DNA from: Candidatus Amesbacteria bacterium
GTDB lineage: Bacteria; Patescibacteriota; Microgenomatia; CAZETR01; Amesbacteraceae
Direction: 5' to 3'
DNA: 64,000 bases
Assembly: GCA_027371535.1 (NCBI GenBank)
Contig: DAHXMV010000004.1
Span: 3,666-67,665 of the forward strand
Positions within the stretch are counted from its first letter, which is position 1. Each line of letters starts with the position of its first letter. This document shows, piece by piece, positions 3,536-41,286 of this stretch. The translations under genes were made by a program, and so were the position numbers. Below the pieces are notes generated by a model. That model did not search any database, had not been told where the DNA came from, and saw only the letters and a program-made list of their open reading frames with translations.

Positions 3536-4063
3536 TTATTTAATTAATATGACACGATTGGGATTTTCAGGATCTTTAAAATCTAAATCGGGAGAAATAA
3601 TCGGTTGCATTAATAATTGTTTTAAAGCGATGGATAACATAGGTGAAGTTTTAAGCGTACGCATAAGCAGGGGTTTGTCTGTAGAAGCTAATTTATTTGT
3701 TAGCCGGCTGCCAATTCTGTTATTCTGGAAATCAGGGTCGACACCAACTTCTGATATGTAAAAACTTAGAGTTTCGTCCTGACGGAAATTTCTAAGTAAA
3801 ATTTTACCTTCTTTGGTATCGTATTTGGTTTCAACAAATTTTTCCCAATCAAGTTGATACCCCCAACCAAAACCAATAGGAATATTCTCTGAAATTGCCA
3901 AATATGCGACAGCTATTTTTTTGGAGAGTTCCATTGAAATATATTTCATAGCTTTTTTCTCACCTAAAGGCGGATCAAACCATGGTGAGCCTGTAAAAAC
4001 CCGGTCATATAAACCGGCAACTGATTTCAGATAGTTTTGGGAAAACTCAATAATTTCTATCAT
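3536..4063 (-). CDS. GNAT-family N-acetyltransferase (start trimmed to the first Met outside the tRNA)
   Basis: ISEVGVDPDFQNNRIGSRL resembles GNAT motif A (Q/RxxGxG/A). The 189-aa ORF runs into tRNA-His, so the start was moved to the Met at 4063. Confidence 0.45.
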   Translation of the reverse strand: MIEIIEFSQNYLKSVAGLYDRVFTGSPWFDPPLGEKKAMKYISMELSKKIAVAYLAISENIPIGFGWGYQLDWEKFVETKYDTKEGKILLRNFRQDETLSFYISEVGVDPDFQNNRIGSRLTNKLASTDKPLLMRTLKTSPMLSIALKQLLMQPIISPDLDFKDPENPNRVILIK

Positions 4064-17316: not shown

Positions 17317-18360
17317 ATGAAAGTGACAGTAATTTATAATCAGGGCAGTCTTTTTGAGACAAATTCCGAACAGCAGATCGCCGACAGGGATACATATCTG
17401 TCGGCAAAGCAGGTTTATGACTCGTTAGTCAGAAATGGCCATACAGCCGTATTATATGAAATGCGGCCGGATAATTATGAGATGATCAGTAAAATTAAAA
17501 CCGAGGTGATTTTTAATCTCTGTGAATGGTCCGGAAGAGATTACCCACTGGCTATCAAAGTGCTGGAAATACTTGAGACCATGAATATTCCGTTTACCGG
17601 CACCAATAAAGCATCCATGAAATGGAGCGCGGATAAGGTAGTGATGAAAGGATTATTTGAAAAATACAAAATTCCCACACCGGCATATGTGATATATAAA
17701 AAAAGCCCGGGGAACAGGCCGCTTAAAAAATCGGACAGTATCCCCTACCCCCTCCTGATCAAACCGGCGCTGGAACATTGCGGAATCGGTATTCATCAGA
17801 GTTCGATCGTCCCGAATTATCGGGAACTGAAAAAGAGAGTGGCCCGACTGCGGGATTTATACAAGCAGCCGATACTGGTTGAGGAATACATTGAGGGAAG
17901 GGAAATTCAGGTGACGGTAATAAATAACGGAGAGATAAAAATTTTACCTCCGGCTGAAATTATATTCAGCGATAAGCCCGGGATGAAGAAAATATTTTCA
18001 TTTGAGAGCAAGTGGCAAAATGAGCGGGAAGAATCCAATTATGAAAAAACCATTGTGGCAAAAATGGACCGGCGGCTGAAAATTAAGATGATGAATTTAT
18101 GCAAGAAAATATATACAGAACTGAATTGCGTGGCTTATATCAGAATAGATACCCGGGTAAGGGACGGCCAAATATTTGTTCTGGAAGTAAATGTGGATCC
18201 GGGATTGGATGCGGATCCGGAATACGGGATGTATGCATCCTGTATTGCCGAGGGCTGGAGTTTTGACGGGCTGGTAGAAGAAATAGTTAAAGCAGCTTTA
18301 TTACGGTTCGATAAGGAAAATATTATCAGAAGCACTTATGAAAATAGGAATATTGTATAA
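17317..18360 (+). CDS. ATP-grasp ligase, D-Ala-D-Ala-ligase (Ddl) superfamily, non-canonical paralog 1
   Basis: The C-terminal half matches the Ddl ATP-grasp core (LVEEYIEGREIQVTVINNG...AYIRIDTRVRDGQIFVLEVNVDPGLD, cf. Ddl EEFI.GrE..v.vl......RvDf...dg.pyllEvNt.PG). The N-terminus is unlike canonical Ddl. Confidence 0.7.
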   Translation: MKVTVIYNQGSLFETNSEQQIADRDTYLSAKQVYDSLVRNGHTAVLYEMRPDNYEMISKIKTEVIFNLCEWSGRDYPLAIKVLEILETMNIPFTGTNKASMKWSADKVVMKGLFEKYKIPTPAYVIYKKSPGNRPLKKSDSIPYPLLIKPALEHCGIGIHQSSIVPNYRELKKRVARLRDLYKQPILVEEYIEGREIQVTVINNGEIKILPPAEIIFSDKPGMKKIFSFESKWQNEREESNYEKTIVAKMDRRLKIKMMNLCKKIYTELNCVAYIRIDTRVRDGQIFVLEVNVDPGLDADPEYGMYASCIAEGWSFDGLVEEIVKAALLRFDKENIIRSTYENRNIV

Positions 18361-19387: not shown

Positions 19388-19767
19388 TCAGACCAAACGG
19401 TAAAGACGACGAACAATTCGGACAGGAACTGATTTTAAATTTATACGACTGCGATTTGCAGAAGATTTCCGACGGCGACCATATTAAAAATTACATCGTC
19501 AAGTTGTGCGACGAGGTGATTTTTATGAAGCGGTACGGCGAGGCCCTTATCCCGCATTTCGGACATGACAACCCGGTCACTTCGGGTTATTCGCTGGTGC
19601 AATTAATAGAAACCAGCTGCGTATCGGCACATTTTTCGGAATATAAAAAATCAGTTTATATAAACATATTTTCATGCAAGTGGTTTGATCCCCAAAAAGC
19701 CGAAGAGTTTTCCAAAAAGTGGTTCGGGGCCAATAAAACGGAAACGCATCTGTTGCAAAGATTTTAA
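19384..19767 (+). CDS. Small pyruvoyl-dependent S-adenosylmethionine decarboxylase (SpeH/class 1b AdoMetDC)-like protein
   Basis: Alignable by eye to B. subtilis SpeH over the full length (GQELILNLYDCD vs GRHVISELWGCD; SGYSLVQLIETSCVSAHFSEY vs SGVVIISESHLTIHSFPEH; IFSCKWFDP vs VYTCGDLDP). The processing-site Ser appears replaced by Thr. There is a 4-nt overlap with the upstream ATP-grasp gene. Confidence 0.6.
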   Translation: MIRPNGKDDEQFGQELILNLYDCDLQKISDGDHIKNYIVKLCDEVIFMKRYGEALIPHFGHDNPVTSGYSLVQLIETSCVSAHFSEYKKSVYINIFSCKWFDPQKAEEFSKKWFGANKTETHLLQRF

Positions 19768-20360
19768 ACTTCCGGAAGAAAAAGTCTGGCTGAAGAAGTG
19801 GTGAATTTGGGCAAGTGGGCTGATTCTTTGGCAATCACCAGCATCAGACGATTGTAATATTTACGAGCCAGTCTGAAACCGCGTTTATGATGATTATTTT
19901 TTATCCTCCGGAAATCATAGTCGTACCAAATATCAATAAAATCAGTCCACTTGTAGGATTTTTTACCGCCCCAGGAGGAATCAAATAAAACTATCCGGCT
20001 GTTGCGATTGGAGTAAGATGCCACTGAAGAGTAATGGCCGCTTTCGCCTTCTTTATCATCGGTATCAATTTCCTGGTAATTAACCATAACTGCCCGGGGG
20101 CGGTCGGGAAACGATTTGAGACCGGACTGGAGATGCTTTAAAGTGGACCATTCAATCGCCAAAACCGGATAACCCAGACGGTTGATGGCTGAAATCAGAT
20201 TTTTGACCGAAGTTCCGTTTCGGGGAGTGGTCTTACACAGGCTGATCAGCCGGTCCAAAGGGATCCGCCGGCCAAGAATATCCAGGGCGGTTTTTAAGGC
20301 CGCAGGGCCGCAGGTGTAGCCATCCGGCTGGGGGTGGGTTTTGACTTTGGATCTGCTCAT
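19764..20360 (-). CDS. Papain-fold C39-like (Peptidase_C39_2/BtrH-like) cysteine peptidase or acyltransferase
   Basis: N-terminal PQPDGYTCGPAALKTALDILG is the Cys-containing motif of C39-like domains. A downstream GHYSSV supplies a candidate His. It is convergent with the SpeH-like gene and shares its stop region. Confidence 0.5.
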   Translation of the reverse strand: MSRSKVKTHPQPDGYTCGPAALKTALDILGRRIPLDRLISLCKTTPRNGTSVKNLISAINRLGYPVLAIEWSTLKHLQSGLKSFPDRPRAVMVNYQEIDTDDKEGESGHYSSVASYSNRNSRIVLFDSSWGGKKSYKWTDFIDIWYDYDFRRIKNNHHKRGFRLARKYYNRLMLVIAKESAHLPKFTTSSARLFLPEV

Positions 20361-20410: not shown

Positions 20411-21964
20411 TTATACCGAAGGGGTGATTTTTCGGTATAAAATTGTGTGGTTTTTCAGATCAGTCATTACAATTTTCCAGTTTTCAGGAGGAATCAGTTT
20501 GGAGTCCGGATACCGCACTAATAAAAAATCATAGAGATTGAAATTAAGCGGACCCGTAATTTGCGAAATGTGAACCAGATGAATATTATCGGGCAGGTAA
20601 AATAAATTGTTGACGCCGGCAATTAACAGAGTTTTTCCGGCAGGAATATTTTCAGCCAGATAATTGCCGGTATCATAATAATCTCCGAAAGAAAAATTCA
20701 AATGACTGATTAAAAATTCCTGGCGGGTCTGTTTACCTATTATCACCGGCAAATATTTGAAATTAGCGGCGGATCTGTAAATTATAGAAAAAAGTGACAA
20801 CAACAGAGTCAGAATAATAAGAGAATATTTTAATATCAGGGGCGAGCAGGCATTGATTATAAATACCGTTAATAAAGAAAAGGCAGGCAAGAAAGGTAAA
20901 AACAAACGGCCTTCTCCCTGGTGGGGGGTAATAAACCAGGCAATTAATGATAAGCCGCAATATAAAAATATCAGCCGCACTCCCCTACTCTTTTCCCGGA
21001 CTGATCTGAGAAAAAGCAATGGTGCGGAAATTATATACACCGGTGAAATCGGATCCGGCGCTTGTGTAAACAGAATCCAAAAATCCCGCAAATCAAATTT
21101 AATCAGTGTATTCAGATAAGGTTGCGAAAAGACGGGATAAAAAGGATTTCCGGTAGTCAGCCAGGAGAAAAGCCACCAGGGCAGCGGAACCAGCAGGCAA
21201 AAAAAAGTAAAACGAAAAAGTTCCGAAAGGGATTTTTTTCGAAAAAGTAACAGAATAAGAAATACCGGCAGACCGGTGAGGGAAAGAAATTTTACAGTTA
21301 TTGCCAGTCCTAACGTAATGCTTGCAGCCACGGGTTTATTATCGAATAACAATTTGAGAGCTAATATTTCAAAAAATGTCCTGGCGAGGTCTACATAGGC
21401 GGTGACAGATTCCCAACCAACTACCAAATTGGTGTAAAAAAGCACCAGCACTAACAGGGACATAAACCTTCCGAGAAATTTACGGCTTAATCCGTACAGA
21501 GGAATGAGAATCAAAAGGCCGAAACAGAAATGGATTAATTTGGCCCATATTTCATTTCCCAAAGATAAAGCAACGGCGTATAAGGGCTCAATTAATTTGG
21601 GCATCACGGAGTATTCAAAAACCGATCCGGGGATATATCTGATAGAGTGTTCTGCCAGCCAGATTTTTGGCAGGGTGAGATGGTACCACAAGGCGTCGAA
21701 ACCGATTTCCGGTCCCAGGGCACCAAGAATATTTATTACAGCCGCGGCCAAAAGCAGTATGACCAACAACCACTCCCTTTTTCGGAGTCTCATTTCAGGC
21801 AGGGAAATTTTATTGTGGAAATAGAAAACGACCAAAAATAACCAGGAAGCAGTCAATCCGATCAGATTTTTTGAGGTTAACCAGCCGAATACTCCCAGTC
21901 CGAATACGGTATAGGATAGAATGGCTAATAACAGGCTTAGAGCAAACATAAATGCTGTCTGCAA
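20411..21964 (-). CDS. GT-C fold membrane glycosyltransferase (ArnT/PMT-like, GT39/GT83-type), 13 or more TM
   Basis: The first extracytoplasmic loop, PEIGFDALWYHLTLPKIW, resembles the DE/DxxxY-type loop motif of the dolichyl/undecaprenyl-phosphate-sugar transferases. Hydropathy is consistent. Confidence 0.45.
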   Translation of the reverse strand: MQTAFMFALSLLLAILSYTVFGLGVFGWLTSKNLIGLTASWLFLVVFYFHNKISLPEMRLRKREWLLVILLLAAAVINILGALGPEIGFDALWYHLTLPKIWLAEHSIRYIPGSVFEYSVMPKLIEPLYAVALSLGNEIWAKLIHFCFGLLILIPLYGLSRKFLGRFMSLLVLVLFYTNLVVGWESVTAYVDLARTFFEILALKLLFDNKPVAASITLGLAITVKFLSLTGLPVFLILLLFRKKSLSELFRFTFFCLLVPLPWWLFSWLTTGNPFYPVFSQPYLNTLIKFDLRDFWILFTQAPDPISPVYIISAPLLFLRSVREKSRGVRLIFLYCGLSLIAWFITPHQGEGRLFLPFLPAFSLLTVFIINACSPLILKYSLIILTLLLSLFSIIYRSAANFKYLPVIIGKQTRQEFLISHLNFSFGDYYDTGNYLAENIPAGKTLLIAGVNNLFYLPDNIHLVHISQITGPLNFNLYDFLLVRYPDSKLIPPENWKIVMTDLKNHTILYRKITPSV

Positions 21965-23079: not shown

Positions 23080-25578
23080 TCAGGGTGTTTCTGTATCTTT
23101 TTCCAGGCAGGTGACAGCAGCCACAGTGTCGCTTTTGTGGGAAAAGCGCATCAGGATTACTCCTTGGGTGTCACGGCCGAGCTGGGGGATATTTCTGATC
23201 GGCAATTTAATTATCTGGGCACTTTTACTGGTCAAGACGATCTGGTCGACCAGTTCATCTATAGCGATACAGGAAACTATCTTGCCGGTTTTGGGAGTGA
23301 TTTGGGCCGGTTTTACACCCTGCCCGCCGCGTTTTTGCAGCGGCCAGGCATTTACGGAAGTCCGCTTGCCCAAACCATTTTCAGTGACAATTAAGACATC
23401 TTCGAAGGATTTACGCCGCCGGTCCCTGGGGGCTTCCTTTGTGGACGGAAAAACTTCCATACCGACAACATAGTCACCGGCTTTTAATTCGATACCCCGG
23501 ACACCCATGGTATCGCGGGCTGTCGGCCGGACATCTTCTTCTTTAAACCGGATCGATTTGCCGTCATGGGAGACTAAAAGGATATGATCGGAACCGGTGG
23601 TGGATTTGACCCATTCCAGGGAATCGCCGCTGTCGAGTTTGATGGAAATGATACCCGTGGTCCGGATATTTGCATAATCGGAAAGTTTGGTTTTTTTGAC
23701 GGTGCCGTTTTTGGTGGCCATCAAAAGGAATTTAATCTCGTCGCCTTTACCGAGGGCCAAGACGGTCTGCAATTTTTCATCCTGATTGATATTAATCAGG
23801 TTAACGACAGCCTGACCTTTGGCCTGACGGGAGCCTTCTGGCAGATCATAGACCTTTATCTTAAAGACCCGGCCGGTGGTGGTAAAAAACAACATATCAT
23901 CATGGGTATTGGCGGTAATCATGTGGGCAATATCGTCCTCTTCCTTGGTGGTCATACCGGTAACACCCTTGCCCCCCCGGTGCTGGGTTCTGAAAACCGC
24001 CGGATCCTGGCGCTTGATGTAGCCGGTGGAAGTAATGGTAATGACGGTGTCTTCTGAAGGAATAAGGTCTTCTTCACTGAGTTCCCCCAGGGCCAGTTTA
24101 TAGACTTTGGTCCGGCGGGGATCACCGTATTTATCTTTGATTTCAGCCAGTTCGGTCTTAATAAGCCCCAGGATTTTTTCGGGATGGGCCAATAAGTCTT
24201 CCAGAAATCCGATTAAGTCCAGGACTTCTTTGTATTCATCTTCTATTTTTTGTCTTTCCAGAGCGGCTAAACGCCTCAGCTGCATGTCCAGAATTGCCAC
24301 AGACTGAATTTCCGACAGACCGAACCGGGACATTAAATTGGTCTTGGCCTCGTCGGAATCGCGGGATTCGCGGATGGTTTTGATGACGGCATCCAGATGA
24401 TCAAGGGCGATCTTTAAGCCTTCCAGAATATGGGCCCGGGCTTTGGCAATTTTTAAATCGTACTGGGTTCTTCTAGTGACTACCAGCTGGCGGTGTTTGA
24501 TATATTCACCCAGGATCTGGGATAAACCCAGAGTCAGCGGAGTGCCGTCTACCAGGGCCACAAAATTGGCAGGAAACGTAGTCTGGAGAGCGGTATGCTT
24601 CCAGAGGTTGTTTAACAAGGCTTTGGGCTTGGCGTCGCGTTTTAACTCGATTACCATCCTGATACCATGGCGGTCAGACTCGTCTCTCAGGTCAGAGATG
24701 CCGTCGATCTTTTTTTCATGTACCAGATCGGCAATATGGGCTACTAATTCGGCTTTGTTTACCTGATACGGCAGTTCTGTGACTACAATCTGGGATTTAC
24801 CGGACTTGGTTTCTTCGATTTCGGCTTTGCCCCGGACGACGATGCGGCCGCGGCCGGTGGCGTAAACTTCGGCGATGGCTTTGGAGTCATAAATGGCCCC
24901 GGAGGTGGGAAAATCCGGACCTTTGATAAATTGCATCAATTCTTCAACCGAAGCCCCGGGGTGGTCAATCTGATATGTCACCGCGTCGACCACCTCGGAC
25001 AGATTATGGGGAGGGATTTTGGTGGCCATACCGACGGCGATACCTTCGGAACCCATTAAGAGGAGATTTGGCAGTTTGGCAGGCAGGAAGACGGGTTCGT
25101 TGTGGGAACCGTCAAAATTGGGGGCCATATCCACTGTTTCCTTTTCGATGTCGGTGAGCATTTCGTCGGAAATACGGGAAAGTTTGGTCTCGGTGTAACG
25201 CATGGCAGCGGGAGAGTCGCCGTCTATCGAGCCAAAATTTCCCTGGCCGTCAACCAACGGATACCGCATGGAAAAATCCTGGGCCAGGCGGACCAGGGCA
25301 TCGTAAACCGGCATATCGCCGTGAGGATGGTATTTGCCTAAAACTTCACCGACTACCGTGGCGGATTTTTTATGCTTTGAACTGAATTTCAGACCCATGT
25401 CCCACATGGCATACAAAATCCGGCGATGGACGGGTTTTAATCCGTCACGGGCGTCCGGCAGGGCTCTCTGGACGATGACGGACATGGCATAGTCCAGAAA
25501 ATTTTTCTGCATTTCCTGGGTGATTTCCACCTGAAGAATTTTACCTATTTCATTTGTATTTTCCTCAATATCAGCCAC
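23080..25578 (-). CDS. gyrA: DNA gyrase subunit A
   Basis: Active-site region AMRYTE (Tyr). N-terminus [26 protein letters not shown]-terminal beta-pinwheel repeats. 832 aa. Confidence 0.95.
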
Positions 25579-25858: not shown

Positions 25859-27883
25859 TTATTTGCCGAAGAACTGGATGACCAGGGGAGCGATGAGCAG
25901 GGCGACAATCTGGACAATTTTCATCATGGGATTTAAAGCCGGACCGGAGGTATCTTTCAAAGGATCACCCACAGTATCTCCCACAACAGCGGCCTTGTGA
26001 GTGTCTGACCCTTTGCCGCCAAAATGGCCGTCTTCGACGTATTTCTTGGCGTTGTCCCAGGCACCGCCGGTATTGCACATAAAGAAAGCCAGAATCAAGC
26101 CGGAAGCAACCACACCGCCCAAAAATCCTCCCAGAGATTCGGCGCCAAAAACACTCATCACCAGAGGCATGCAAATTACTATAGCGGCAGGAATGACTAA
26201 TTCGCGCTGGGCCGCAGCAGTGACTATTTCAACGGCTTTGGAATAATCAGGCAGAGCCTTGCCTTCCATGATACCTTTAATAGTTTTGAACTGACGGCGG
26301 ACTTCCTCCACGACTTCAAAAGCGGCCCTTCCGACAGACCCGACCAAGCGGGAAGAAAAGAGATACGGCAGGGCACAACCAGCTAAAAGGCCGATAAATA
26401 CCTGGGGTTTGGCGATATCGATCCCGACCAAACCCGTCTTTTCAAAGTAGGTAGCAAAGAGCGATGAGGCGGCAACTGCGGCTGATCCGACGGCAAATCC
26501 CTTGGTCAGGGCTTTAGTCGTATTTCCGACGGCATCCAGGCTACCGGTAACAAAGGCAGCTTTGCCTTTTAACCCGGCCATTTCCACCATACCCTGGGCG
26601 TTATCGGAAATCGGACCGAAAGTATCCAGAGCCATAATAATTCCGGTAGTAGCCAACATACCCATACCGGCTAAAGAAATCCCGTAAAAACCAATTAATT
26701 TATAACCAATAAAGATTGTAGCAATAATGATCAGGGTGGAAATGAAGGTGGATTCCATGCCATAGGACAGACCGGAAATAATATTGGTGCCGGCGCCAGT
26801 TTGGGAAGCTTTGGAAATCGCCACGACCGGTTTTTCTCCGGGGCCGGTGTAGTATTTGGTGATATAAAGCAAAGCCAGCATGGATACTATTCCTGAAATA
26901 GCCGCAAAACCGGCCTTCGGTTCACCCAGCAGGAAAATTGCCAGCAGCATAAAGACCACCACTGCAGCCACTGCCGAGACAATAAAACCGCGCATCAGGG
27001 GCTTTATGGGATCTTCTTTATCCGAGCGGGCTTTTACGAAGAAAGTTCCCAGGATGGAAGCCAAAATACCGCCGGAGCGGGCCAAAAGCGGGAAAACCAC
27101 ACCTTTGAGGCCAAACATGGCACCGCCTAAAATCATGGCAGCCACAATGGTTAAGGCATAGGACTCGAAAACATCAGCCGCCATACCGGCACAATCACCG
27201 ACGTTATCACCGACATTGTCTGCAATAGTGGCGGGGTTTCGGGGATCATCCTCGGGGATTCCTTTTTCCACTTTACCAACCAGATCGGCTCCGACATCAG
27301 CGGCTTTGGTAAAAATGCCTCCGCCGACCCGCATAAAAAGAGCTAAAAGAGCGGCCCCGAAGCCATAACCTACTAAAACGGTGGTGGCTTCCCTGGCAAC
27401 CATAGCCGCACCCTGACTGATAAAGGCAAAATAGGCCCAGGCATATATCAGAGAAACTCCTAACAGACCCAACCCCACAACGAGCATTCCGTTGACGGTG
27501 CCAGCACCGAAAGCGACTCTTAAAGCCGGATTCAGCCCCCGGATAGCGTTGTTGGCGGTTCTGACGTTGGCTCTGACGGCGATCCACATACCAAAATAGC
27601 CAATCACGGCAGAGAAAACAGCTCCCAGCAGAAAAGTAACGGCAATGCCCAATCCGAGCGTTAAAGCAATTAATACTGACAGGACGCCCATAATCGGGAA
27701 GACGACGGAAAATTGTTTTTTAAGATAGGCCATGGCTCCATCACGAACGGCTTTGCCGATGGCCTGCAATTTGGGGGAACCTTCATCTTCCTTTAAAACT
27801 TTTTTAGCCAGAAAAACACCATAACCCAGGGCAATCAGAGCGGTTGCGGGGGCGGTAAAAAGAGCTATGAGTTGGATATCCAT
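25859..27883 (-). CDS. hppA: Membrane-bound proton-translocating pyrophosphatase (H+-PPase)
   Basis: [40 protein letters not shown] and the C-terminal [17 protein letters not shown] are diagnostic PPase motifs. 674 aa with about 16 TM. Confidence 0.92.
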
Positions 27884-27963: not shown

Positions 27964-29679
27964 TCACGGATGGGTAATCTGTGTGACAGAAGAGGAGAAA
28001 GGTATTCCCAGCGTGCCGGCATAGTTGGAAATGATTCCGTTATTCGACCAGTCAGCTGTAGGAATCAGACTATTGAGAGAAGAGTTGGTTAAAAAAGGTC
28101 TGACGGAGAATGTGGTTGAATATGTCGAAGTCCGGCCAAGATTTCCATAAGCAGCCTGGGGGATAATTACTGAGCCGTGACTGACATAAATAGGGCGACG
28201 ATTAATGTCCCGCCAGAGGGAAGCCGTGCCGGTTTTAATTTCCAGGAAGCCACTGTAGGGAATGCCGTTGCTTTGGCGAACAAGTAATTCATAAGGTTGG
28301 CCCCAATGAATGGTGAGATTATCAGATCCGGTTCCTGCGGAGCCCGGGACTTTTAAACTGATGTATAGCGGAGATGTTTTGGGAATAAACGACTCTACTA
28401 CTTTGGCAGTCAGGTTTTTACTGTCGTTACCGGCTTCGCACTGGGGCGGAGTTCGGTCCCAGCATCTGGTTGGAGGATTCCACCACTGACGGATCATATT
28501 AAATAAACCCTGAGGGGAAAATGTCCAATCTTCAGTCAAAGACCACATTATCTGAGTTGCCCGGTTTTTCCAACCGCTTTCCACCTGTCGGAAAGTGACG
28601 AGGGAATTTGGCGGAGCGACTGAAGACGGGGCCAACATATCCACATGCCAGATATCAAAATTGGTATCGATTCCGTTTAAAGGATGTCCCAGGGCAGTGT
28701 TAATCATAGGTTGCGGAGTGGCAGATAAGTTGGCAGGAAGAATCCGATTATACGGATAGAGCTGGTAGAAATAGGACATATCACCGTCATTATGATTTGA
28801 ATCCCAGGATCCGGTGGCACCCGTGAAACCGCCGAGCAATGCCTGGTAAGACTGATCATACGGGAAACTATCAGAATACTGGACGTTTATAATACCGGAG
28901 GCGCCGGGGGGATAGAGGGTGTTGTAAAAGTCAAAGTTATAAATTTTTCCCGATACTGCTCTGACTTGCAGACCGTTTGGAGTAGAAGACTCGGTTATGC
29001 ACCAACGCAAAACTGACGGGGAACCGGTATTCCAATAGGCGGAGGAATTACTTTTAGTGTATCTCCAAACGTAACCTCCGGGAGGGCAAAATGAAGTATC
29101 AGTATCGGTTTCAACATCAATCCGGGAATAGCCCTTAAAGTTGCCATATGCATCCCTGTTTTCCAGAATAGAATAGGCACCCCGGGGTGGAAGGGGTAAT
29201 TGGGTGCCGGAAAAGGAAACATTCTTATAGACAACAGAACTGGCAGAAACGATTTGCAAATCAAAATTACTGTAATAGTCGGTTGTTTTTCCCCGAGGTT
29301 TGTAGCGGACCAGGTAGTAGGCCAAAGGTAAAGTATAAGATCCAGGGATAGTAATAGTCCCGTTTGAGACCAGGAAGTTACCCCATTGACCCTGGATATT
29401 TTTACAGGGATTTAGTACGGGGTCGAAATTTAAGGGGCACATGGTCAGGTCGTAATCAAGATATCCGTAATAGGGTACCCCGTCGACGGTTATTTTCAGG
29501 GTATATCCGTCATTCGGGCCAATCGATGTGGGAAGAATTTCAATAGCTGTATGGGCAGCAGCCCGGGTGGCAGTTTGGGGTGTAACCTGCTTAATAAAGA
29601 TGACAGATACTACAAGAATGGGCAGAAACACCAAAGTCAATATAAGTTGTTTGGGGAGGAGTCGCATTTTCCGAACCAC
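27964..29679 (-). CDS. Large secreted protein of unknown function (signal peptide; Tyr/Trp/Asn-rich beta-type composition)
   Basis: N-terminal signal peptide (LILTLVFLPILVVSVIFI). No recognisable catalytic motif. It lies between gyrB and hppA. Confidence 0.4.
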   Translation of the reverse strand: MVRKMRLLPKQLILTLVFLPILVVSVIFIKQVTPQTATRAAAHTAIEILPTSIGPNDGYTLKITVDGVPYYGYLDYDLTMCPLNFDPVLNPCKNIQGQWGNFLVSNGTITIPGSYTLPLAYYLVRYKPRGKTTDYYSNFDLQIVSASSVVYKNVSFSGTQLPLPPRGAYSILENRDAYGNFKGYSRIDVETDTDTSFCPPGGYVWRYTKSNSSAYWNTGSPSVLRWCITESSTPNGLQVRAVSGKIYNFDFYNTLYPPGASGIINVQYSDSFPYDQSYQALLGGFTGATGSWDSNHNDGDMSYFYQLYPYNRILPANLSATPQPMINTALGHPLNGIDTNFDIWHVDMLAPSSVAPPNSLVTFRQVESGWKNRATQIMWSLTEDWTFSPQGLFNMIRQWWNPPTRCWDRTPPQCEAGNDSKNLTAKVVESFIPKTSPLYISLKVPGSAGTGSDNLTIHWGQPYELLVRQSNGIPYSGFLEIKTGTASLWRDINRRPIYVSHGSVIIPQAAYGNLGRTSTYSTTFSVRPFLTNSSLNSLIPTADWSNNGIISNYAGTLGIPFSSSVTQITHP

Positions 29680-29764: not shown

Positions 29765-31738
<1,974 letters not shown>

Positions 31739-32484: not shown

Positions 32485-32618
32485 ATCAATTGTATTTTAG
32501 CAGGGTAGGCTACATATCCCAATGATTATAATTTGCAGCTGCAAACCATTGGGATATATCCAATTATACAATTGCCTTCGCAATTGAATGTTAATTGGCT
32601 ATAATATTATTTATATAT

Positions 32619-34370
32619 ATGAATCCTGCCCAGGGAAACTTTAAAGGTGTCGGGGAAGTTGAAGCCAGTAATATTCTGGGGATTTTGGTAAAAGACGGCA
32701 AGCTGACAAGCGAAAATTACGAGAAAGCCAGAATGGCATATGTAAACAGCGGGGCTACGATGACTGACTGGCTGGTTTCACAACAGTTAGTCTCCCTGGA
32801 AGATATTATGAAGGCCAGGGCCAAGTATTACAACGTACCGTTTGTACATCTGTCCGAAGTGGCGATTTCCCCGATGGCTCTGGGATTTATCGACAAAGAT
32901 ATAGCAGAGAGACTGAATGCGCTGCCGTTTGATTACAACCAGTCATTAGGACAGCTGTCTGTAGCTATGGGAAATCCGGTAGATTTATCGGCGCTGGAAT
33001 TTTTGGAGAAGAAAACCGGGGTCAAAATAAAACCCTATGCAGCCATCCCCGATGAGGTCCAGACAAATATTGATATCCGGTATGAGCAGAGCCTGTCGAC
33101 TGAAGTAACGGCGGCGTTGAAAGAAGCTGGCGGGACGGTGCCGACAGAAGTTAAAACGATCAATATCCGCAGGGTGAATGAAGTGATTAAAGAAGCTCCG
33201 ATAGCTAAAATTGTGACCACGATTCTGGAGTTTGCCATGAAGTCCAGGGCTTCGGATGTGCACATTGAGCCATTGGAGGAGCGGACCAGAGTGCGGTACA
33301 GGATAGACGGAATTTTACACGAAAAGCTGGTACTGCCTAAAAAGATTCATGACGCGCTGATATCCAGGATAAAAATATTATCGGATATAAAAATCGACGA
33401 AAAAAGAATTCCCCAGGACGGCAGATTTAATTTTCAGACCGAAGATGACGAGGTGGACCTGCGGGTATCAACTTTGCCGACGGTGCACGGGGAAAAAATT
33501 GTAATGCGGCTTCTGAAGAAAAGCGGTTCAGTGCCCACAATGCAGCAATTGGGACTGCGCGGCAAGGCTTTGGCAAATCTGGAAGAAGCGATATTAAGAC
33601 CGCACGGAATTATTCTGGTAACCGGACCCACCGGTTCGGGGAAAACGACTACTCTGTATTCGGTACTGTCAAAAATAAATACCATCAAAGTGAATATCAT
33701 GACCCTGGAGGATCCGGTGGAGTATCAGATGGCCGGGGTCAACCAGGTACAGATAAATCCCCAGGCGGGGCTGACATTTGCCTCAGGTCTGAGATCATTT
33801 CTGAGGCAGGATCCGAATATCATTATGGTCGGCGAAGTCCGGGATGAAGAAACAGCCGAGCTGGCGATTCAGGCCTCACTTACCGGTCATTTGGTATTTT
33901 CCACCCTGCATACCAATTCGGCTTCCGGCGCCCTACCGCGGCTTTTGGATATGAAAGCCGAACCATACCTTTTAGCATCTTCCATAACGGCGATTGTGGC
34001 CCAAAGGGTAGCCAGAAACATCTGTACGGTTTGCAAAAAGGAATATGTTCCGGCACCTGAAGTAATTACCGATATGAAAAGTGTCCTGGGTAAATTGTGG
34101 GCCATTGACCCGGCTAAAAAACCGGTTTTATACAGAGGCACGGGGTGTGACCAGTGTGCGAATACCGGATTTAAAGGGAGGATAGGAATTTTTGAGGTCT
34201 TGCCCGTAAGCGAAAGAATTGGTAGGCTGATATTAGAACGGGCGTCTGCAGGCGACATCGAAAGAGCCGCAGTCGAAGACGGTATGATCACCATGAAACA
34301 GGACGGTTATTTAAAAGTAGTCGAGGGAATTACCTCGATTGATGAAGTGCTGAGAGTGGCACAGGAGTAG
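32619..34370 (+). CDS. pilB: Type IV pilus assembly ATPase PilB (GspE family)
   Basis: T2SE N-terminal domain, Walker A GPTGSGKTTTLYSVL, Asp and His boxes, and a C-terminal tetracysteine CTVC...CDQC. Confidence 0.9.
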   Translation: MNPAQGNFKGVGEVEASNILGILVKDGKLTSENYEKARMAYVNSGATMTDWLVSQQLVSLEDIMKARAKYYNVPFVHLSEVAISPMALGFIDKDIAERLNALPFDYNQSLGQLSVAMGNPVDLSALEFLEKKTGVKIKPYAAIPDEVQTNIDIRYEQSLSTEVTAALKEAGGTVPTEVKTINIRRVNEVIKEAPIAKIVTTILEFAMKSRASDVHIEPLEERTRVRYRIDGILHEKLVLPKKIHDALISRIKILSDIKIDEKRIPQDGRFNFQTEDDEVDLRVSTLPTVHGEKIVMRLLKKSGSVPTMQQLGLRGKALANLEEAILRPHGIILVTGPTGSGKTTTLYSVLSKINTIKVNIMTLEDPVEYQMAGVNQVQINPQAGLTFASGLRSFLRQDPNIIMVGEVRDEETAELAIQASLTGHLVFSTLHTNSASGALPRLLDMKAEPYLLASSITAIVAQRVARNICTVCKKEYVPAPEVITDMKSVLGKLWAIDPAKKPVLYRGTGCDQCANTGFKGRIGIFEVLPVSERIGRLILERASAGDIERAAVEDGMITMKQDGYLKVVEGITSIDEVLRVAQE

Positions 34371-34373
34371 AAC

Positions 34374-35432
34374 ATGACCATACAACAAATGCTGACATAT
34401 ATTATTGAACACCGGGGTTCGGACCTGCATCTGGTACCCGGTCACCCGCCGCTGATCAGGATTGACGGAATTCTGCTGCCGATTGCCGGCCAAAAAGTGC
34501 TCGGGGCGACGGAAGTGGAACAACTGATTTCCGGGGTGATGTCCGCGGAACAGAAACAGATGTTTATCGTGAACAAAGAACTGGATTTTTCGTTTTCATA
34601 CGGCGAGGATGCCAGGTACAGGGTGAATTCATATTTCCAGAAAGGGGTGATGGCAGCCAGCTTCAGGTTAATTTTATCGAAAATTCCGGAGATTGATGAG
34701 CTGGGTTTGCCGCGGATCTGCCATGAGTTTGCGACCCTGAGACAGGGTTTTGTGCTGGTAACCGGGCCGACCGGACAAGGGAAGTCCACCACTCTGGCCT
34801 CGGTACTGCAGGAGATTAATAACACCCGCCCGGTGCACATCATTACTATCGAAGACCCGATTGAATATATATATGCCCCATCCAAGGCAATAATCTCTCA
34901 AAGGGAGGTGCATAATGACACCCATTCGTGGGAACTGGCTCTGCGGTCTGTCCTGCGCGAAGATCCTGATGTAGTCCTGATAGGGGAAATGCGGGATTAT
35001 GAGACGATCGCGGCGGCTCTGACAATTGCGGAAACGGGCCATCTGGTGTTTGCCACCCTGCATACCAATTCAGCGGCGCAGACAATCGACCGTATCGTGG
35101 ACGTTTTTCCGGAAAATCAGCAGCCGCAGGTACGGATGCAGTTATCCGCCAATCTGGAAGCCGTGCTATCCCAGAGGTTATTGCCCAGAAAAAGCGGCGG
35201 CCGGGTGGTGGGCTATGAAATTATGGTAGGAACAGCCGCAGTCAGGACATCCATCAGGGAAGGCCGGACGCATATGATCGATAACATTATTCAGACTTCG
35301 GCAGAATACGGGATGAAGACCCTGGAATCAACCCTGGGGGAATTGGTCAATTCCGGAGTGATCGCCAGGGAAACGGCCGAGGCATATGCTACCCGTCCCG
35401 AGGATATCAAGCGTTACATAAAAGGAGCTTAA
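34374..35432 (+). CDS. pilT: Twitching-motility retraction ATPase PilT
   Basis: Walker A GPTGQGKSTTLASVL, IITIEDPIEY and GEMRD motifs. 352 aa. Confidence 0.9.
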   Translation: MTIQQMLTYIIEHRGSDLHLVPGHPPLIRIDGILLPIAGQKVLGATEVEQLISGVMSAEQKQMFIVNKELDFSFSYGEDARYRVNSYFQKGVMAASFRLILSKIPEIDELGLPRICHEFATLRQGFVLVTGPTGQGKSTTLASVLQEINNTRPVHIITIEDPIEYIYAPSKAIISQREVHNDTHSWELALRSVLREDPDVVLIGEMRDYETIAAALTIAETGHLVFATLHTNSAAQTIDRIVDVFPENQQPQVRMQLSANLEAVLSQRLLPRKSGGRVVGYEIMVGTAAVRTSIREGRTHMIDNIIQTSAEYGMKTLESTLGELVNSGVIARETAEAYATRPEDIKRYIKGA

Positions 35433-35433
35433 A

Positions 35434-36636
35434 GTGAGGATTAAATATTCGGCCAAGGATAACTCCGGCAGGAATATAAAGGGATTTGTGGAGGCGGCAA
35501 ATGTTCATGCAGCGGCGGGGATATTAAGGGAGCAAAAAATGCTGCCGATTGAAATGCAGGAAGTTAAAAAAGGCCTAAACCTATCCGTTTTTATGGATAA
35601 CCTAAAAGGGGTGTCTTCAAAAGAACTGACTAATTTTACGAGACAGCTGGCGACGATGATGACTGCCGGGTTGCCCCTGACCGACGCGTTAAACTTGCTA
35701 AAAGCCCAGTCACCACCCGTACTATCGGGAATTGTCGGAATGGTGCTGGTGGATGTGCAATCAGGAGTTGCTTTGTCTGCAGCGCTGGGAAAATTCCCGA
35801 AAGTATTTAACCGGATTTACGTTTCGCTGGTAAAAGCGGGTGAATCCGCAGGACTGATGGAAAAGATCCTGAACCGGCTGGCGGATACGGCAGAGAAAAA
35901 CCAGGAGTTTAAAGGCAAAATAATAGGCGCCATGATTTACCCGATAATTATTCTGGTGGGTATGGTGCTGGTGTTTATATTGATGATTGTATTAGTTGTA
36001 CCGCAAATGAAATCAATGTATGCGGATTTAAATTCCGAGCTGCCGTTTGCCACCAGAGCGTTGATAGCAATTTCAGATTTTTCTGTTAATAACGGGCCAT
36101 TAATAATTATCGCCCTGGTCGGAATATTTTTCGGGATCCGTTCATACGTCCAGACGGATAAAGGCAGGGAGAACGCAGCCAGGTTGAAATTTGCCTTTCC
36201 TTTAATAGGTTCATTGTTGCGCCAATCCGCAATGGCCGAATTTTCTCGGGTGATGTCACTATTATTATCCGCCGGAATTTCGATAGTCGAATCACTGAGA
36301 ATTTCTGCCGATTCAGCGGGAAATATAGTCATGGTAAATGACATCAAAAAAATTGCCAATCAGGTGGAAAAAGGTTTCCCGGTCTCAATTTGTTTTTCGG
36401 AGAGCGAGACGTTTCCGCCAATATTCGGGCAAATGGTAGCTGTCGGCGAGGAAACCGGAAAGATGGACGATGTAATGAATAAGCTGTCGTATTATTTTGA
36501 AACGGAATCAGACCAGAGGGTCAAAGGCTTGACAACCGCTATTGAACCGATAATACTAATTGTAATGGCAGTCGGAGTAGGACTTTTGATGTATGCAATT
36601 ATCATGCCGATGTACGGAGTTATGAATAAAGTTTAG
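35434..36636 (+). CDS. pilC: Type IV pilus inner-membrane platform protein PilC (GspF family)
   Basis: Two T2SSF repeats (LATMMTAGLPLTDAL... and LSLLLSAGISIVESL...). 400 aa. Confidence 0.85.
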   Translation: MRIKYSAKDNSGRNIKGFVEAANVHAAAGILREQKMLPIEMQEVKKGLNLSVFMDNLKGVSSKELTNFTRQLATMMTAGLPLTDALNLLKAQSPPVLSGIVGMVLVDVQSGVALSAALGKFPKVFNRIYVSLVKAGESAGLMEKILNRLADTAEKNQEFKGKIIGAMIYPIIILVGMVLVFILMIVLVVPQMKSMYADLNSELPFATRALIAISDFSVNNGPLIIIALVGIFFGIRSYVQTDKGRENAARLKFAFPLIGSLLRQSAMAEFSRVMSLLLSAGISIVESLRISADSAGNIVMVNDIKKIANQVEKGFPVSICFSESETFPPIFGQMVAVGEETGKMDDVMNKLSYYFETESDQRVKGLTTAIEPIILIVMAVGVGLLMYAIIMPMYGVMNKV

Positions 36637-36668
36637 TTTCCCTGGAAGGAGGTGAAATAACCGAAAAT

Positions 36669-37127
36669 ATGTTAAAAAGAGCATTCACATTAATAGAGCT
36701 TTTGGTAGTTATTGGTATACTGGCTGTCCTAATGGCCGGTGTTGTGGCGTTAATCGATCCGGTTGACAAAAACAGAGCGGCCAATGATGCCCAAATGCAA
36801 TCGTTGGTTGCCAACGCAGCCACGGCTGAAGAGTCATATGCGGCTACCCATAACGGTTGTTATGCGAGGACATGGGCGAACCTGAATACTGCAGGAGAAT
36901 TAAAAACCGCTACCCCAAATATTCCTTCTACAGGTGGTTATGTAGCTCCTACGTTTACCATAGGTGCAGTTGCAACCTGTACTAACGCAAACGAAACAGA
37001 TTCGATAAACGTTTGTGCTAATTTGAAGTCAAAGAGGTACACTGGCCCGGCTACCCCGAATTGGCATTATGATTCCATTTCCGGAAAGACATGTGCCACC
37101 GTAAATTGTACAGATGCGTGTCCGTGA
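36669..37127 (+). CDS. pilA: Type IV major pilin (PilA-like), class III signal peptide
   Basis: MLKRAFTLIELLVVIGILAVL. Glu at +5. A C-terminal Cys pair is present. Ala, not Gly, precedes the Phe. Confidence 0.8.
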   Translation: MLKRAFTLIELLVVIGILAVLMAGVVALIDPVDKNRAANDAQMQSLVANAATAEESYAATHNGCYARTWANLNTAGELKTATPNIPSTGGYVAPTFTIGAVATCTNANETDSINVCANLKSKRYTGPATPNWHYDSISGKTCATVNCTDACP

Positions 37128-37154
37128 TGGTTTGAAAGTACTTTCAGACACAAC

Positions 37155-37187
37155 AATCCCGCCCCAAACGGCGGGATTGTTTTTTTG
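37155..37187 (+). terminator. Rho-independent terminator after pilA
   Basis: AATCCCGCC-CCAAAC-GGCGGGATT hairpin followed by GTTTTTTT. Confidence 0.75.
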
Positions 37188-37211
37188 GTAGTATATTAAA
37201 AGAATTGATTT

Positions 37212-37952
37212 ATGAACGGGCTTATTTATGCAATTGTTTTTTGTTACGGAATAATCATGGGGAGTGCGGCCAATGCGCTGATTGACCGTTTGCCCAAAGG
37301 AAAATCCTGGTTTAAGGGCAGGTCGGAATGTGATAAATGCCATCACCAACTTAAATTTGGGGATCTGATTCCGGTGTTTTCCTACCTCTATTTGAAAGGG
37401 AAATGCGGGTATTGCCACTCACCTATTCCGGTAAGAAACCTGATAGTCGAGATAATAACGGGATTGGCATTCATTGTTATTCTTGGTCATTCATGGTCAT
37501 ACAGTAGTTTATTGTTAGCAGGGATTGCTTGGGTGACGGTGATAATTGCGTTCATGGATTGGGAGACGAAGCTGGTCAGCGAGGCGATGGTGGTGATATG
37601 GGGTGTGCTGGCACTTTTGGGTAATTGGGGAAATTTGGGCAATTTGGGAAATTGGGGCGGATTGTTAATCGGGGTGGGGGTGATTGGCGGAATATGGCTG
37701 GTGACAAGGGGACGGGCCATGGGCGAGGGAGATATAGAAATTGCCGCAGTCATGGGCTGGTGGCTGGGATGGGCAAATACCCCCGTGGCTTTGTGGCTGG
37801 CATTTGTACTGGGATCAGTGGTCGGAGTGTGGAAACTGGCGAAAAAGAAAAGTCATTTAAAAGACCAAATAGCATTCGGGCCGTTTTTGGTATTGGGCAG
37901 CTGGATAGCCTATTGGTGGGGGGAAAAGATCTGGGCTTTCATAGTAAAATAG
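37212..37952 (+). CDS. pilD: Prepilin peptidase PilD (A24 family), with an internal 9-nt tandem-repeat-encoded GNWGNLGNLGNWG loop
   Basis: N-terminal Zn-binding CDKCHH...CGYCH tetracysteine and two catalytic Asp regions (IAFMDWETK, GEGDIEIAAV). Confidence 0.85.
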   Translation: MNGLIYAIVFCYGIIMGSAANALIDRLPKGKSWFKGRSECDKCHHQLKFGDLIPVFSYLYLKGKCGYCHSPIPVRNLIVEIITGLAFIVILGHSWSYSSLLLAGIAWVTVIIAFMDWETKLVSEAMVVIWGVLALLGNWGNLGNLGNWGGLLIGVGVIGGIWLVTRGRAMGEGDIEIAAVMGWWLGWANTPVALWLAFVLGSVVGVWKLAKKKSHLKDQIAFGPFLVLGSWIAYWWGEKIWAFIVK

Positions 37953-37956
37953 AGGG

Positions 37957-38445
37957 GTGGAAAAGTTTTCCGTGTTGGCGTGGAGTAGAAAAGAAATATC
38001 GTTTGTGACGGCGATTATTACCCTGGTATTCGGATTATCATGGTATCAGATAATAATCGGAGAGATGAAGACCAGGGATTCACAGAGGATGCAGGATGTG
38101 GAGGCTATCAGCCGGGCGATCAGGACTTATTGGGATGATTATAAGGTCTATCCCGAGGAGGCTACAGGAGAGGGAAAAATGGTCCAATGCGGCGAAAAGG
38201 GCGGTCAGGTATGTGAATGGGGTAAAAGCACCATCAGGGATAAATATAATGTAGTGTATATGAATCTGGTGCCCGGCGATCCCCTGACGAGCAAAGGTTA
38301 CCATTACGTTTACATTCCGGATGCCGAAAGACAGCATTTCAGGATTTACATTGCCCTGGAATACGATGGCGATGCGAGGGTAAAACCTGATTTGACAATC
38401 CAGTGCGGAAACCGTGTACAATGTAATTGGTATGTACAGGAATGA
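37957..38445 (+). CDS. GspG-like pseudopilin-fold protein with a non-canonical N-terminus (GTG start)
   Basis: EAISRAIRTYWDDYKVYPE matches the GspG signature (I..A...Y..d.g.YP). There is a hydrophobic N-terminal helix but no G-F-T-L-I-E cleavage motif. Confidence 0.4.
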   Translation: MEKFSVLAWSRKEISFVTAIITLVFGLSWYQIIIGEMKTRDSQRMQDVEAISRAIRTYWDDYKVYPEEATGEGKMVQCGEKGGQVCEWGKSTIRDKYNVVYMNLVPGDPLTSKGYHYVYIPDAERQHFRIYIALEYDGDARVKPDLTIQCGNRVQCNWYVQE

Positions 38446-38836
38446 ACCTCAGGGATTTACTTTAATAGAATTAGTAATAACCATGGGTTTAATAGCAATT
38501 TTGTCGGCGGGGACGTTGTCTGTTTTGGGTCAGGGACCGCAAAAATATGCCAGAGATTCAAGACGAAAGGCTGACCTGCAGTCAATTGCTTCCGCTCTGG
38601 AATTATACAGGAACGACCATAGCGGTTATCCAATTGCCGGAAACTATCCCTCGGGAATTCAGGGGACTTATATGAATACCATTCCGAAAGATCCCAAAAA
38701 AAGTACATTGGACTATGCTTATACCCCCGGAAATTGCGGTCCGACATATTGTTCGACTTTCAGTATTTGTACTAATAGTTCACAACCCCCTGAATCTTAC
38801 GGAGAGCCGCTCCAGTACTGTGTTTATAACCCATGA
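38432..38836 (+). CDS. Type IV pilin/pseudopilin (GspG-like)
   Basis: Class III signal QGFTLIELVITMGLIAIL plus LELYRNDHSGYP. The start is ambiguous (38414 or 38432). Confidence 0.65.
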   Translation: MYRNEPQGFTLIELVITMGLIAILSAGTLSVLGQGPQKYARDSRRKADLQSIASALELYRNDHSGYPIAGNYPSGIQGTYMNTIPKDPKKSTLDYAYTPGNCGPTYCSTFSICTNSSQPPESYGEPLQYCVYNP

Positions 38837-39402: not shown

Positions 39403-39407
39403 TTAAT

Positions 39408-39878: not shown

Positions 39879-39881
39879 GAG

Positions 39882-40388: not shown

Positions 40389-40435
40389 GGTTGGAAATTG
40401 CATAAAGATGTGCGATAGTTATAATAAATAAAGAT

Positions 40436-41269: not shown

Positions 41270-41286
41270 ACTTTTCGATATAGATT

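Follow-up and report, generated by a model that had tools for sequence, protein, structure and literature searches.

A stand-alone C39-family cysteine peptidase homolog encoded tail-to-tail with ATP-grasp ligase genes in Patescibacteria

This analysis concerns a gene on the minus strand of a 64,000-nucleotide (nt) stretch of contig DAHXMV010000004.1 (positions 3,666 to 67,665 of the forward strand; assembly GCA_027371535.1, Candidatus Amesbacteria bacterium), referred to below as the window. The gene encodes a homolog of C39-family cysteine peptidases. Sequence and structural model place the predicted protein with C39-proper and PeiR-like papain-fold enzymes, with a complete catalytic set, and not with BtrH-like proteins. 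This placement follows from Pfam and NCBIfam scores, from comparison of the model with solved structures, and from alignments obtained by searching Protein Data Bank (PDB) sequences with a profile. We hold the fold and the predicted catalytic competence with high confidence, and the protein is probably a real and active cysteine peptidase. The fold assignment is not new, since relatives of the protein are already labelled “cysteine peptidase family C39 domain-containing protein.” What is novel is the combination of two features: a cytoplasmic C39 enzyme, specific to its clade and extended at the C-terminus, and a conserved partnership with non-canonical Ddl-like ATP-grasp ligases, in which the genes lie tail-to-tail and usually overlap, and in which the ligases are found elsewhere in polyamine or probable β-lysine operons. 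The enzyme may act on amides that these ligases make.

The C39 gene and its tail-to-tail junction

The features of the C39 gene, in window coordinates, are as follows.

19764–20360, minus strand: gene for the stand-alone C39-family cysteine peptidase homolog, 198 residues, ATG start; the C39 core comprises residues 1 to ~149
20328–20330, minus strand: codon of Gln11 (ctg, read as cag), predicted oxyanion-hole residue, invariant
20310–20312, minus strand: codon of Cys17 (gca, reverse complement tgc), predicted nucleophile in the motif YTCGPAAL, invariant in 28 of 28 homologs
20034–20036, minus strand: codon of His109 (atg, read as cat) in SGHY (motif GHYSSV), predicted general base, invariant
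19980–19982, minus strand: codon of Asp127 (atc, read as gat), predicted third triad member, invariant
19767–19913, minus strand: family-specific basic C-terminal extension, residues 150–198, isoelectric point (pI) 11.6, with an invariant Leu183–Pro184 and a nearly invariant Phe186
19764–19767, both strands: TTAA common to both convergent stop codons, a tail-to-tail overlap of 4 nt read in the sequence

A homolog search covering 5.8 billion proteins returned 76 homologs at E ≤ 6e-41. Because all of these are 190 to 238 residues long, the open reading frame is, judged by its homologs, a genuine gene and no chance frame. Met1 and Arg3 are invariant in an alignment of 28 homologs (42–76% identity), which fixes the start codon.

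The gene converges with that of a decarboxylase-like protein of the AdoMet_dc (S-adenosylmethionine decarboxylase) fold. The C39 frame stops at TTA at 19764–19766 (TAA on the minus strand) and the AdoMet_dc-like frame at TAA at 19765–19767 on the plus strand, so that no intergenic DNA (0 nt) separates the two. A consensus scan found no terminator-like hairpin at or near this junction, and the nearest terminator-like candidates fall within the opposing genes (19514–19496, minus strand, and 20320–20337, plus strand). The preliminary description of this DNA, made from the letters of the sequence, had proposed a convergent overlap of 4 nt that leaves no room for a terminator, and both the stop codons as read and the terminator scan bear this out. 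Promoter-like hits numbered 17, compared with 14.6 ± 3.8 in shuffled sequences; since they are no commoner than in the shuffles, we draw nothing from them.

Fold, catalytic residues, and family assignment

The Pfam profile Peptidase_C39 (PF03412) matches residues 6–146 at profile positions 2–122 of 133, with a score of 39.3 bits that exceeds the cut-off of 22, and a precomputed PF03412 match is present in all 76 homologs. Peptidase_C39_2 (PF13529) is passed marginally (26.8 bits, cut-off 24). The protein has a single domain followed by the C-terminal extension. NCBIfam yielded only sub-threshold matches, to the PA2778 family and to the N-termini of bacteriocin-exporter ABC proteins. The PA2778-family C39 peptidase model (NF033920) scored 22.6 bits where 150 are required and was rejected, as was phytochelatin synthase (PF05023, family C83), an option raised in the preliminary description, which reached 16.3 bits against a cut-off of 24.9 and aligned to residues 73–129 only. 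BtrH_N (PF14399) gave no match to the window protein at E ≤ 1 in Pfam.

The columns that are invariant in the 28-homolog alignment include Met1, Arg3, Gln11, Cys17, Gly18, Pro19, Cys42, Gly108, His109, Asp127, Trp138, Trp145, Leu183, and Pro184. The candidate Cys/His pair picked out from the sequence at the start, now Cys17 and His109, is therefore retained throughout these homologs, and the set is completed by two residues that had not been named, Asp127 as the putative third member of the triad and Gln11 as the putative oxyanion-hole residue. In a profile search against PDB sequences, Cys17 aligns with Cys17 of ComA and with the mutated Cys of PeiR entry 8z4n, which departs from entry 8z4h at precisely this position. 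Gln11 aligns with a Gln located six residues ahead of the Cys in both ComA and PeiR, Gly108–His109 with the GHY of PeiR, and Asp127 with the Asp of “VVADP” in PeiR. The spacing between His and Asp is 18 in the window protein and 16 in ComA. The alignment with ComA starts at position 1, and the similarity is restricted to the N-terminal lobe (residues 1–69).

An AlphaFold2 model calculated from the 28-homolog alignment is confident, with a predicted local distance difference test (pLDDT) value of 87.8 and a predicted template-modelling (pTM) value of 0.86. PeiR is the closest solved structure. The figures listed in the structural comparison are 17.4 for an entry named “P210 CD lyase,” 17.4 for PCAT1, 17.1 for LahT, and 16.8 for ComA, followed by a Bacillus anthracis C39-like protein (14.6) and the phytochelatin-synthase-like Alr0975 (14.3). 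CtaG, the solved transacylase of the BtrH family, reaches 10.2, which is the level of generic papain-like proteases. With two Pfam C39 families above cut-off and concordant structural and PDB profile comparisons, the initial assignment to the papain fold and to C39 is upheld. Of the original label, “C39/BtrH-like,” the first half thus stands and the second falls, given the missing BtrH_N match and the low rank of CtaG.

A basic C-terminal extension and a probable cytoplasmic location

The C-terminal extension is modelled confidently (pLDDT 91–97 across residues 171–198). An exhaustive profile search of 1.84 billion representatives of 50%-identity clusters found only 18 clusters at E ≤ 1e-30, consisting of proteins of ~200 residues that span the whole profile including the extension. 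The 2,525 clusters found at E ≤ 1e-3 are mostly stand-alone C39-like proteins of 145–170 residues that align only up to about profile position 155. Since the whole-profile match is confined to the clusters of ~200-residue proteins, it is the extension (residues 150–198) that defines the family. All those of the 76 homologs that carry organism names come from Patescibacteria or Gottesmanbacteria, and as far as sequence databases reveal, the family is specific to Microgenomates-type Patescibacteria. Its median pI is 10.0 (76 members).

The window protein contains no hydrophobic segment (the maximal Kyte–Doolittle mean over 19 residues is 0.87), and no signal peptide, membrane segment, or cell-wall-binding domain is present in any of the 76 homologs. 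Neither the window protein nor any close homolog is fused to an ABC transporter; all are stand-alone proteins in the size range given above. A cytoplasmic location is the simplest reading, since no member has a signal peptide or an anchor, and the protein is probably cytoplasmic, in agreement with the earlier view of a stand-alone, cytosolic protein. Among the nearest multidomain C39 relatives, the fusion partners are AAT, AAA_33, or LigD_N domains or further C39 domains in tandem.

Gene neighborhood in related loci

Genomic context was assessed in loci from 54 GTDB species representatives and in four single loci (L001, L002, L003, and L147), which were searched with the neighbors of the window gene. 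Orthologous loci share a syntenic block with the order gyrA ... (folD) – SIMPL – C39 → ← ATP-grasp – xerC – DUF5656 – yebC. An ATP-grasp gene resembling that of D-alanine–D-alanine ligase (Ddl) is the immediate convergent neighbor of the C39 gene in 27 of the 33 assessable loci from GTDB representatives, and the same convergent arrangement is seen in L002 and L147; in L018, the contig stops just past the C39 gene. Of 28 distinct loci, 18 have an overlap at the junction between the C39 gene and the ligase side; the median is −4 nt, six of the loci overlap by exactly 4 nt, and L147 has a 4-nt overlap as well. Upstream of the C39 gene the content varies, with a membrane protein of 505–517 residues, SIMPL, folD, or small open reading frames. 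Co-occurrence with ATP-grasp genes in related genomes, put forward at the outset as something to look for, is thus common, and a distant homolog occurs with ATP-grasp genes in an independent operon as well.

Most related loci have one ligase gene and no decarboxylase gene. The combination of a decarboxylase gene with a second ATP-grasp gene occurs only in the closest relatives of the window (L001/L005, L006, L007, L013, and L147), and the order of the ligase and decarboxylase genes differs in L001. A gene of the second ATP-grasp type is visible before the contig end in L017, and L030 and L035 have a second ATP-grasp gene and no decarboxylase gene. Compared with the nearest relatives, identity is ~80% for GyrA, 75–85% for XerC, 71% for the decarboxylase, 52–57% for the C39 protein, and 27–38% for the ligases (the latter compared with L001, L006, L007, and L013), which makes the ligases the fastest-evolving genes of the block. 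Relaxed selection, diversifying selection, and paralog replacement are candidate reasons for this divergence.

Several further observations concern the same region. The C39 gene is preceded, at a distance of 50 nt and likewise on the minus strand, by a gene for a 517-residue polytopic membrane protein (20411–21964). Neither Pfam nor NCBIfam matches this protein, which is kept at this position only in L001/L005 and L006 (44–46% identity). In L147, where the cluster is otherwise identical, the first ATP-grasp gene (3625–3945) encodes a 106-residue fragment with a Dala_Dala_lig_C match, possibly a pseudogene or an assembly frameshift. NUDIX-domain genes recur near window-type clusters (L001, 11195–11842; L147, 2121–2765) and near members of the distant C39-like family described below (11 of 54 loci, L059–L138). 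An anti-phage defence system was considered and rejected, since PADLOC returned no match for any of the five genes submitted.

The neighboring ligases and decarboxylase

On the plus strand, three genes precede the junction.

17317–18360, plus strand: ATP-grasp ligase 1 (AG1), 347 residues, non-canonical Ddl-like; Pfam Dala_Dala_lig_C, 99.3 bits
18338–19387, plus strand: ATP-grasp ligase 2 (AG2), 349 residues, Ddl-like; Pfam Dala_Dala_lig_C, 55 bits
19384–19767, plus strand: homolog of pyruvoyl-type decarboxylases with the AdoMet_dc fold, 127 residues; Pfam AdoMet_dc, 58.4 bits; found in a subset of loci

In most related genomes, the C39 gene has one convergent partner only, and that is of the AG1 type; the AG2 gene co-occurs with the decarboxylase gene. 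Both ligases match solved Ddl structures at ~25% identity. Their scores against the best NCBIfam Ddl model, 132.9 bits for AG1 and 85.3 bits for AG2, lie far below the cut-off of 243, and all other NCBIfam Ddl models are likewise missed by a wide margin. We aligned 120 members of the ligase family with Escherichia coli DdlB, using a DdlB sequence verified as identical to that of PDB entries 2dln and 1iov. In DdlB numbering, the residues for ATP/Mg binding and phosphoryl transfer (Lys144, Arg255, Asp257, Glu270, and Asn272) are invariant in all 120 members. At the positions that bind D-Ala, Tyr216 is replaced by Trp (120/120) and His63 by Glu (109/120), and Glu15, Ser281, and Leu282 are lost; the position of His280 is occupied by Asp in 89 of the 120.

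A housekeeping D-Ala–D-Ala ligase as the neighbor of the C39 gene is excluded by the NCBIfam scores together with the loss of D-Ala-binding residues. From their residues, AG1 and AG2 are amide ligases with substrates other than D-Ala–D-Ala, and their annotation as Ddl is probably wrong. Given that the D-Ala-binding residues are missing, the name “D-alanine–D-alanine ligase” in these genomes is not to be taken as a sign that peptidoglycan synthesis includes this step. The acidic replacements at the D-Ala-binding positions suggest a cationic amine substrate.

Outside the Patescibacteria, ligase homologs sit in polyamine operons and in probable β-lysine operons. On two Thermodesulfobacteriota-type contigs (L141 and L143), ligase pairs come after genes for a deoxyhypusine-synthase-like protein, agmatinase, and a pyruvoyl arginine decarboxylase. 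In two loci from Ignavibacteriales/Bacteroidota (L139 and L140), ligase pairs precede genes for a GNAT protein, a lysine-2,3-aminomutase (KamA-like), and an M24 peptidase; the M24 gene, after the KamA-like gene, closes the co-directional run. Another ligase homolog (L142) lies amid envelope glycosylation genes, with no C39 gene.

Decarboxylase homologs are at least 67% identical across the 120 best hits, which are from Patescibacteria. PMC10407285 describes Ser63, His68, and Cys83 of the Thermotoga maritima enzyme as essential, and the window protein retains the self-processing residues Ser78, His83, and Cys98 with identical spacing. The motif VQLIETS[CS]V[ST]AHFSEY is kept in 103 of 120 homologs. 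According to the same paper, a Pro is conserved in all true S-adenosylmethionine decarboxylases (PMC10407285); the window protein continues after His83 with F-S-E-Y, without that Pro, and has Thr, not Glu, ahead of Ser78. The local pattern Q..ETS....HF.EY has Gln, Thr, Phe, and Tyr following one another as do the residues that this paper gives as diagnostic of SpeDC-type ornithine decarboxylases, a likeness judged by order and not by exact positions. The NCBIfam equivalog model for S-adenosylmethionine decarboxylase reaches 28.7 bits, below its cut-off of 75.65. Judging from these residues and scores, the “S-adenosylmethionine decarboxylase” of the window is probably no such enzyme; it is a probable supplier of an amine.

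A distant C39-like family in co-directional operons

A 170-residue C39-like protein, 30% identical to the window protein, is encoded in Daviesbacteria within a tight co-directional operon (L044, 5557–9424). The order of genes is Ddl-like ATP-grasp, ATPgrasp_ST/PreATP-grasp, C39-like, lysine-2,3-aminomutase-like radical SAM, and alpha/beta hydrolase, with a class III aminotransferase gene divergent from the operon. This C39-like protein scores 23.3 bits with BtrH_N, under the cut-off of 29.7. Three metagenome loci (L124, L128, and L129) have the order KamA-like, ATP-grasp, ATP-grasp, C39-like, starting with the KamA-like gene and ending with the C39-like gene, with overlapping gene ends. The M24 gene of the Ignavibacteriales/Bacteroidota loci sits where a C39-like gene ends such Daviesbacteria-type operons, though the gene orders differ.

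We rejected a conserved ligase association for this Daviesbacteria-type family as a whole, as the contexts of 54 metagenome loci are varied. Besides NUDIX proteins, recurrent neighbors include canonical-looking Ddl, LdcA-like, and S51-like proteins.

Proposed role and alternative explanations

We tentatively propose, as a quite possible role, that the neighboring ligases make aminoacyl-alkylamines and that the C39 enzyme works on these as an amidase, isopeptidase, or transpeptidase. That it acts on ATP-grasp products, most likely on an amide made by the ligases, we infer because its gene is almost always tail-to-tail with ligase genes; the substrate and the direction of the reaction are proposed on the same footing. 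In such a scheme, a C39 domain would have been separated from its usual ABC-transporter context and have gained the basic C-terminal extension. At the expense of ATP, the ligases would form an amide between a cationic alkylamine and a carboxylate, the latter probably from a small amino acid. The amine could be a di- or polyamine from the adjacent pyruvoyl decarboxylase or the side-chain amine of a residue of the Lys/Orn type. Cys17 would attack the amide to give a thioester acyl-enzyme with release of the amine. With water as the acceptor, the enzyme would be an amidase or isopeptidase, and with another amine as the acceptor, a transpeptidase. As a variant, the ligase could act in the cytoplasm on a precursor of the cell wall and place a branch on its Lys/Orn side chain. 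The overlap of convergent genes could, as a matter of speculation, make the expression of synthesis and hydrolysis mutually exclusive.

We consider it unlikely, though conceivable, that a C39 leader-peptidase fold was converted outright into a cytoplasmic small-molecule isopeptidase or transpeptidase that is paired with the fast-evolving, non-canonical Ddl-like ligases and, in some lineages, with a neofunctionalized pyruvoyl decarboxylase. By that account, an aminoacyl-polyamine or (ε)Lys-branched metabolite would be made and unmade, and the convergent overlap would separate synthesis from hydrolysis.

Chemical precedents exist for parts of the proposed role. Phytochelatin synthase is a papain-fold transpeptidase that acts on the product of an ATP-grasp enzyme. 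PeiR is one of the pseudomurein endoisopeptidases, enzymes that cleave an Ala-(ε)Lys isopeptide (PMC4592898), and by analogy this bond is chemically the same as the amide of an aminoacyl-putrescine or aminoacyl-cadaverine. In the phevamine pathway, two ATP-grasp enzymes build an aminoacyl-polyamine (PMC6187163). In trypanothione synthetase-amidase, a papain-fold amidase reverses the ATP-dependent formation of the glutathione–spermidine bond (PMC2427367).

A number of observations weigh against the proposed role. Six loci (L012, L031, L032, L034, L036, and L037) keep the C39 gene without an adjacent ligase gene, whose place is taken by xerC or by a gene for a GH1 glycosidase or a Trans_reg_C protein. 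Conversely, homologs of AG1 and of the decarboxylase are also found without any C39 gene, and in L145 the decarboxylase homolog lies away from any ligase or C39 gene. In the distant C39-like family, an ATP-grasp gene occurs within three genes in only ~10 of 54 metagenome loci, and no fusion of C39 with ATP-grasp was found among the close multidomain relatives. The convergent orientation means that the C39 and ligase genes are not co-transcribed, and since the whole region is syntenic, their adjacency may be inherited and not functional. The pI of the window protein (~10) has no obvious fit with a cationic substrate. Moreover, the strongest sequence similarity, over residues 1–69, is to the leader-peptide peptidase domains of ComA-type exporters.

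Several of these points would equally be expected of a cytoplasmic protease for peptide or protein processing that is unconnected with the ATP-grasp genes, their adjacency being the inherited order of a compact genome. This explanation, which we regard as somewhat unlikely, accounts for the six loci without a ligase, for the lack of ATP-grasp fusions, for the very varied contexts of C39 relatives of ~150–170 residues, and for the character of the region as a syntenic housekeeping block in an ordinary segment of a Patescibacteria chromosome. What it does not readily explain, and what speaks for the proposed role on ligase products, is that the junction between C39 and ligase genes persists, usually overlapping, while the upstream neighbors of the C39 gene change; that the ligases diverge to the low identities given above yet stay beside the C39 gene; and that at least four loci have the distant homolog and two ATP-grasp genes together in one co-directional operon. 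The resemblance to ComA and PCAT leader-peptidase domains, which extends from residue 1 and gives the highest sequence similarity, would fit a double-glycine leader peptidase that matures a bacteriocin, a peptide made by ribosomes and modified after translation (RiPP), or a graspetide, with the ATP-grasp proteins as modifying enzymes. The weak NCBIfam matches to bacteriocin-export ABC N-termini and the use of ATP-grasp enzymes in graspetide pathways (PMC8939145) point the same way. However, the window contains no open reading frame with a double-glycine-type leader (0, compared with 1 in the reversed-sequence control), none was found in 11 related loci, the 16 loci inspected share no conserved small open reading frame upstream of the C39 gene, no ABC exporter gene is adjacent in L001, L002, L003, or L147, and the ATP-grasp proteins resemble Ddl in Pfam, NCBIfam, and PDB comparisons, all of which leaves a leader peptidase highly improbable.

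The structural relatives of the protein among viral lysin peptidase domains raise the thought of a peptidoglycan-directed endo- or isopeptidase, active in autolysis or remodelling and comparable to PeiR or to the peptidase domains at the N-terminus of mycobacteriophage Lysin A. We judge this improbable, since a signal peptide, an anchor, and a wall-binding domain are absent in 76 of 76 homologs, there is no phage context, and TM-scores between the C39 protein and phage lysins are only ~0.5. A cytoplasmic version acting on wall precursors would merge with the ligase/amidase role proposed above. Finally, the set of ATP-grasp, decarboxylase, and papain-fold proteins recalls the biosynthesis of butirosin (BtrJ/BtrK/BtrH) and closthioamide (CtaD/CtaF/CtaG) (PMC7183216), and a thiotemplated transacylase of the BtrH/CtaG type could pass a carrier-bound acyl or aminoacyl group from the ligases and decarboxylase to an amine acceptor. 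A carrier protein is present in 95% of CtaD-type loci (PMC7183216), whereas no PP-binding family was detected among the called genes of L001, L002, L003, and L147 or in the small open reading frames scanned. As, in addition, the window protein lacks a BtrH_N match and CtaG is not its closest neighbor and ranks low in the structural comparison, the chance of such a transacylase appears close to negligible.

To our knowledge, Patescibacteria have a very reduced metabolism and this clade is without cultured representatives. If the coupling to the ligases is real, a C39-family enzyme would work on an amide formed by a ligase and not on the leader of a ribosomal peptide, and these bacteria would possess an uncharacterized amine-conjugate metabolism based on a small set of genes (a peptidase, one or two ligases, and in some cases a decarboxylase). 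If synteny is all that lies behind the adjacency, the gene encodes one more stand-alone C39-like peptidase.

Other genes in the window

The genes gyrA (23080–25578, minus strand) and gyrB (29765–31738, minus strand) are set apart by two genes, one encoding a membrane H+-pyrophosphatase-like protein (25859–27883, minus strand; judged from its sequence only) and the other a 571-residue open reading frame without a Pfam match (27964–29679, minus strand). Type IV pilus genes (two T2SSE ATPases, T2SSF, an A24 prepilin peptidase, and PilM) and a gene for a class A penicillin-binding protein are located at 32595–42309 and 48648–51275, both on the plus strand. The class A penicillin-binding protein, which carries a C-terminal Big_7 domain, implies that the organism makes peptidoglycan.

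Comparison with known systems

The closest known proteins differ from the window protein in architecture or setting. The C39 domains of ABC transporters (ComA, PCAT1, and LahT; PF03412) usually form the N-terminus of an exporter, whereas the window protein stands alone, and relative to the ComA type it adds a basic C-terminal extension of 45–50 residues and has no exporter or double-glycine precursor nearby. PeiR, from a methanogen virus (PDB 8z4h), has an extra N-terminal region, its catalytic part comprising residues ~81–210 of 228. It is a viral lytic enzyme that acts outside the cytoplasm on archaeal walls, whereas the window protein is chromosomal, bacterial, and without a targeting domain. 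Phytochelatin synthase and Alr0975 (C83) are structurally farther from the window protein than the C39 and PeiR proteins.

Glutathionylspermidine and trypanothione synthetase-amidases combine both activities in one polypeptide, and the amidase part is of the CHAP type instead of C39. Their likeness to the window system is a functional analogy only and consists in the pairing of an ATP-grasp-type synthetase with a papain-fold Cys–His amidase that undoes the bond to a polyamine (PMC2427367). BtrH and CtaG belong to the same protease clan as the C39 protein, share its catalytic triad, and are likewise found with ATP-grasp and decarboxylase genes (PMC7183216). In the hsv pathway to phevamine, amidinospermidine receives first Val and then Phe through the action of HsvC and HsvB in turn (PMC6187163), so that an amine-modifying enzyme and two ATP-grasp enzymes parallel the decarboxylase and the two ATP-grasp ligases of the window. 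The hsv pathway has no peptidase gene, and the parallel lies in the set of genes.

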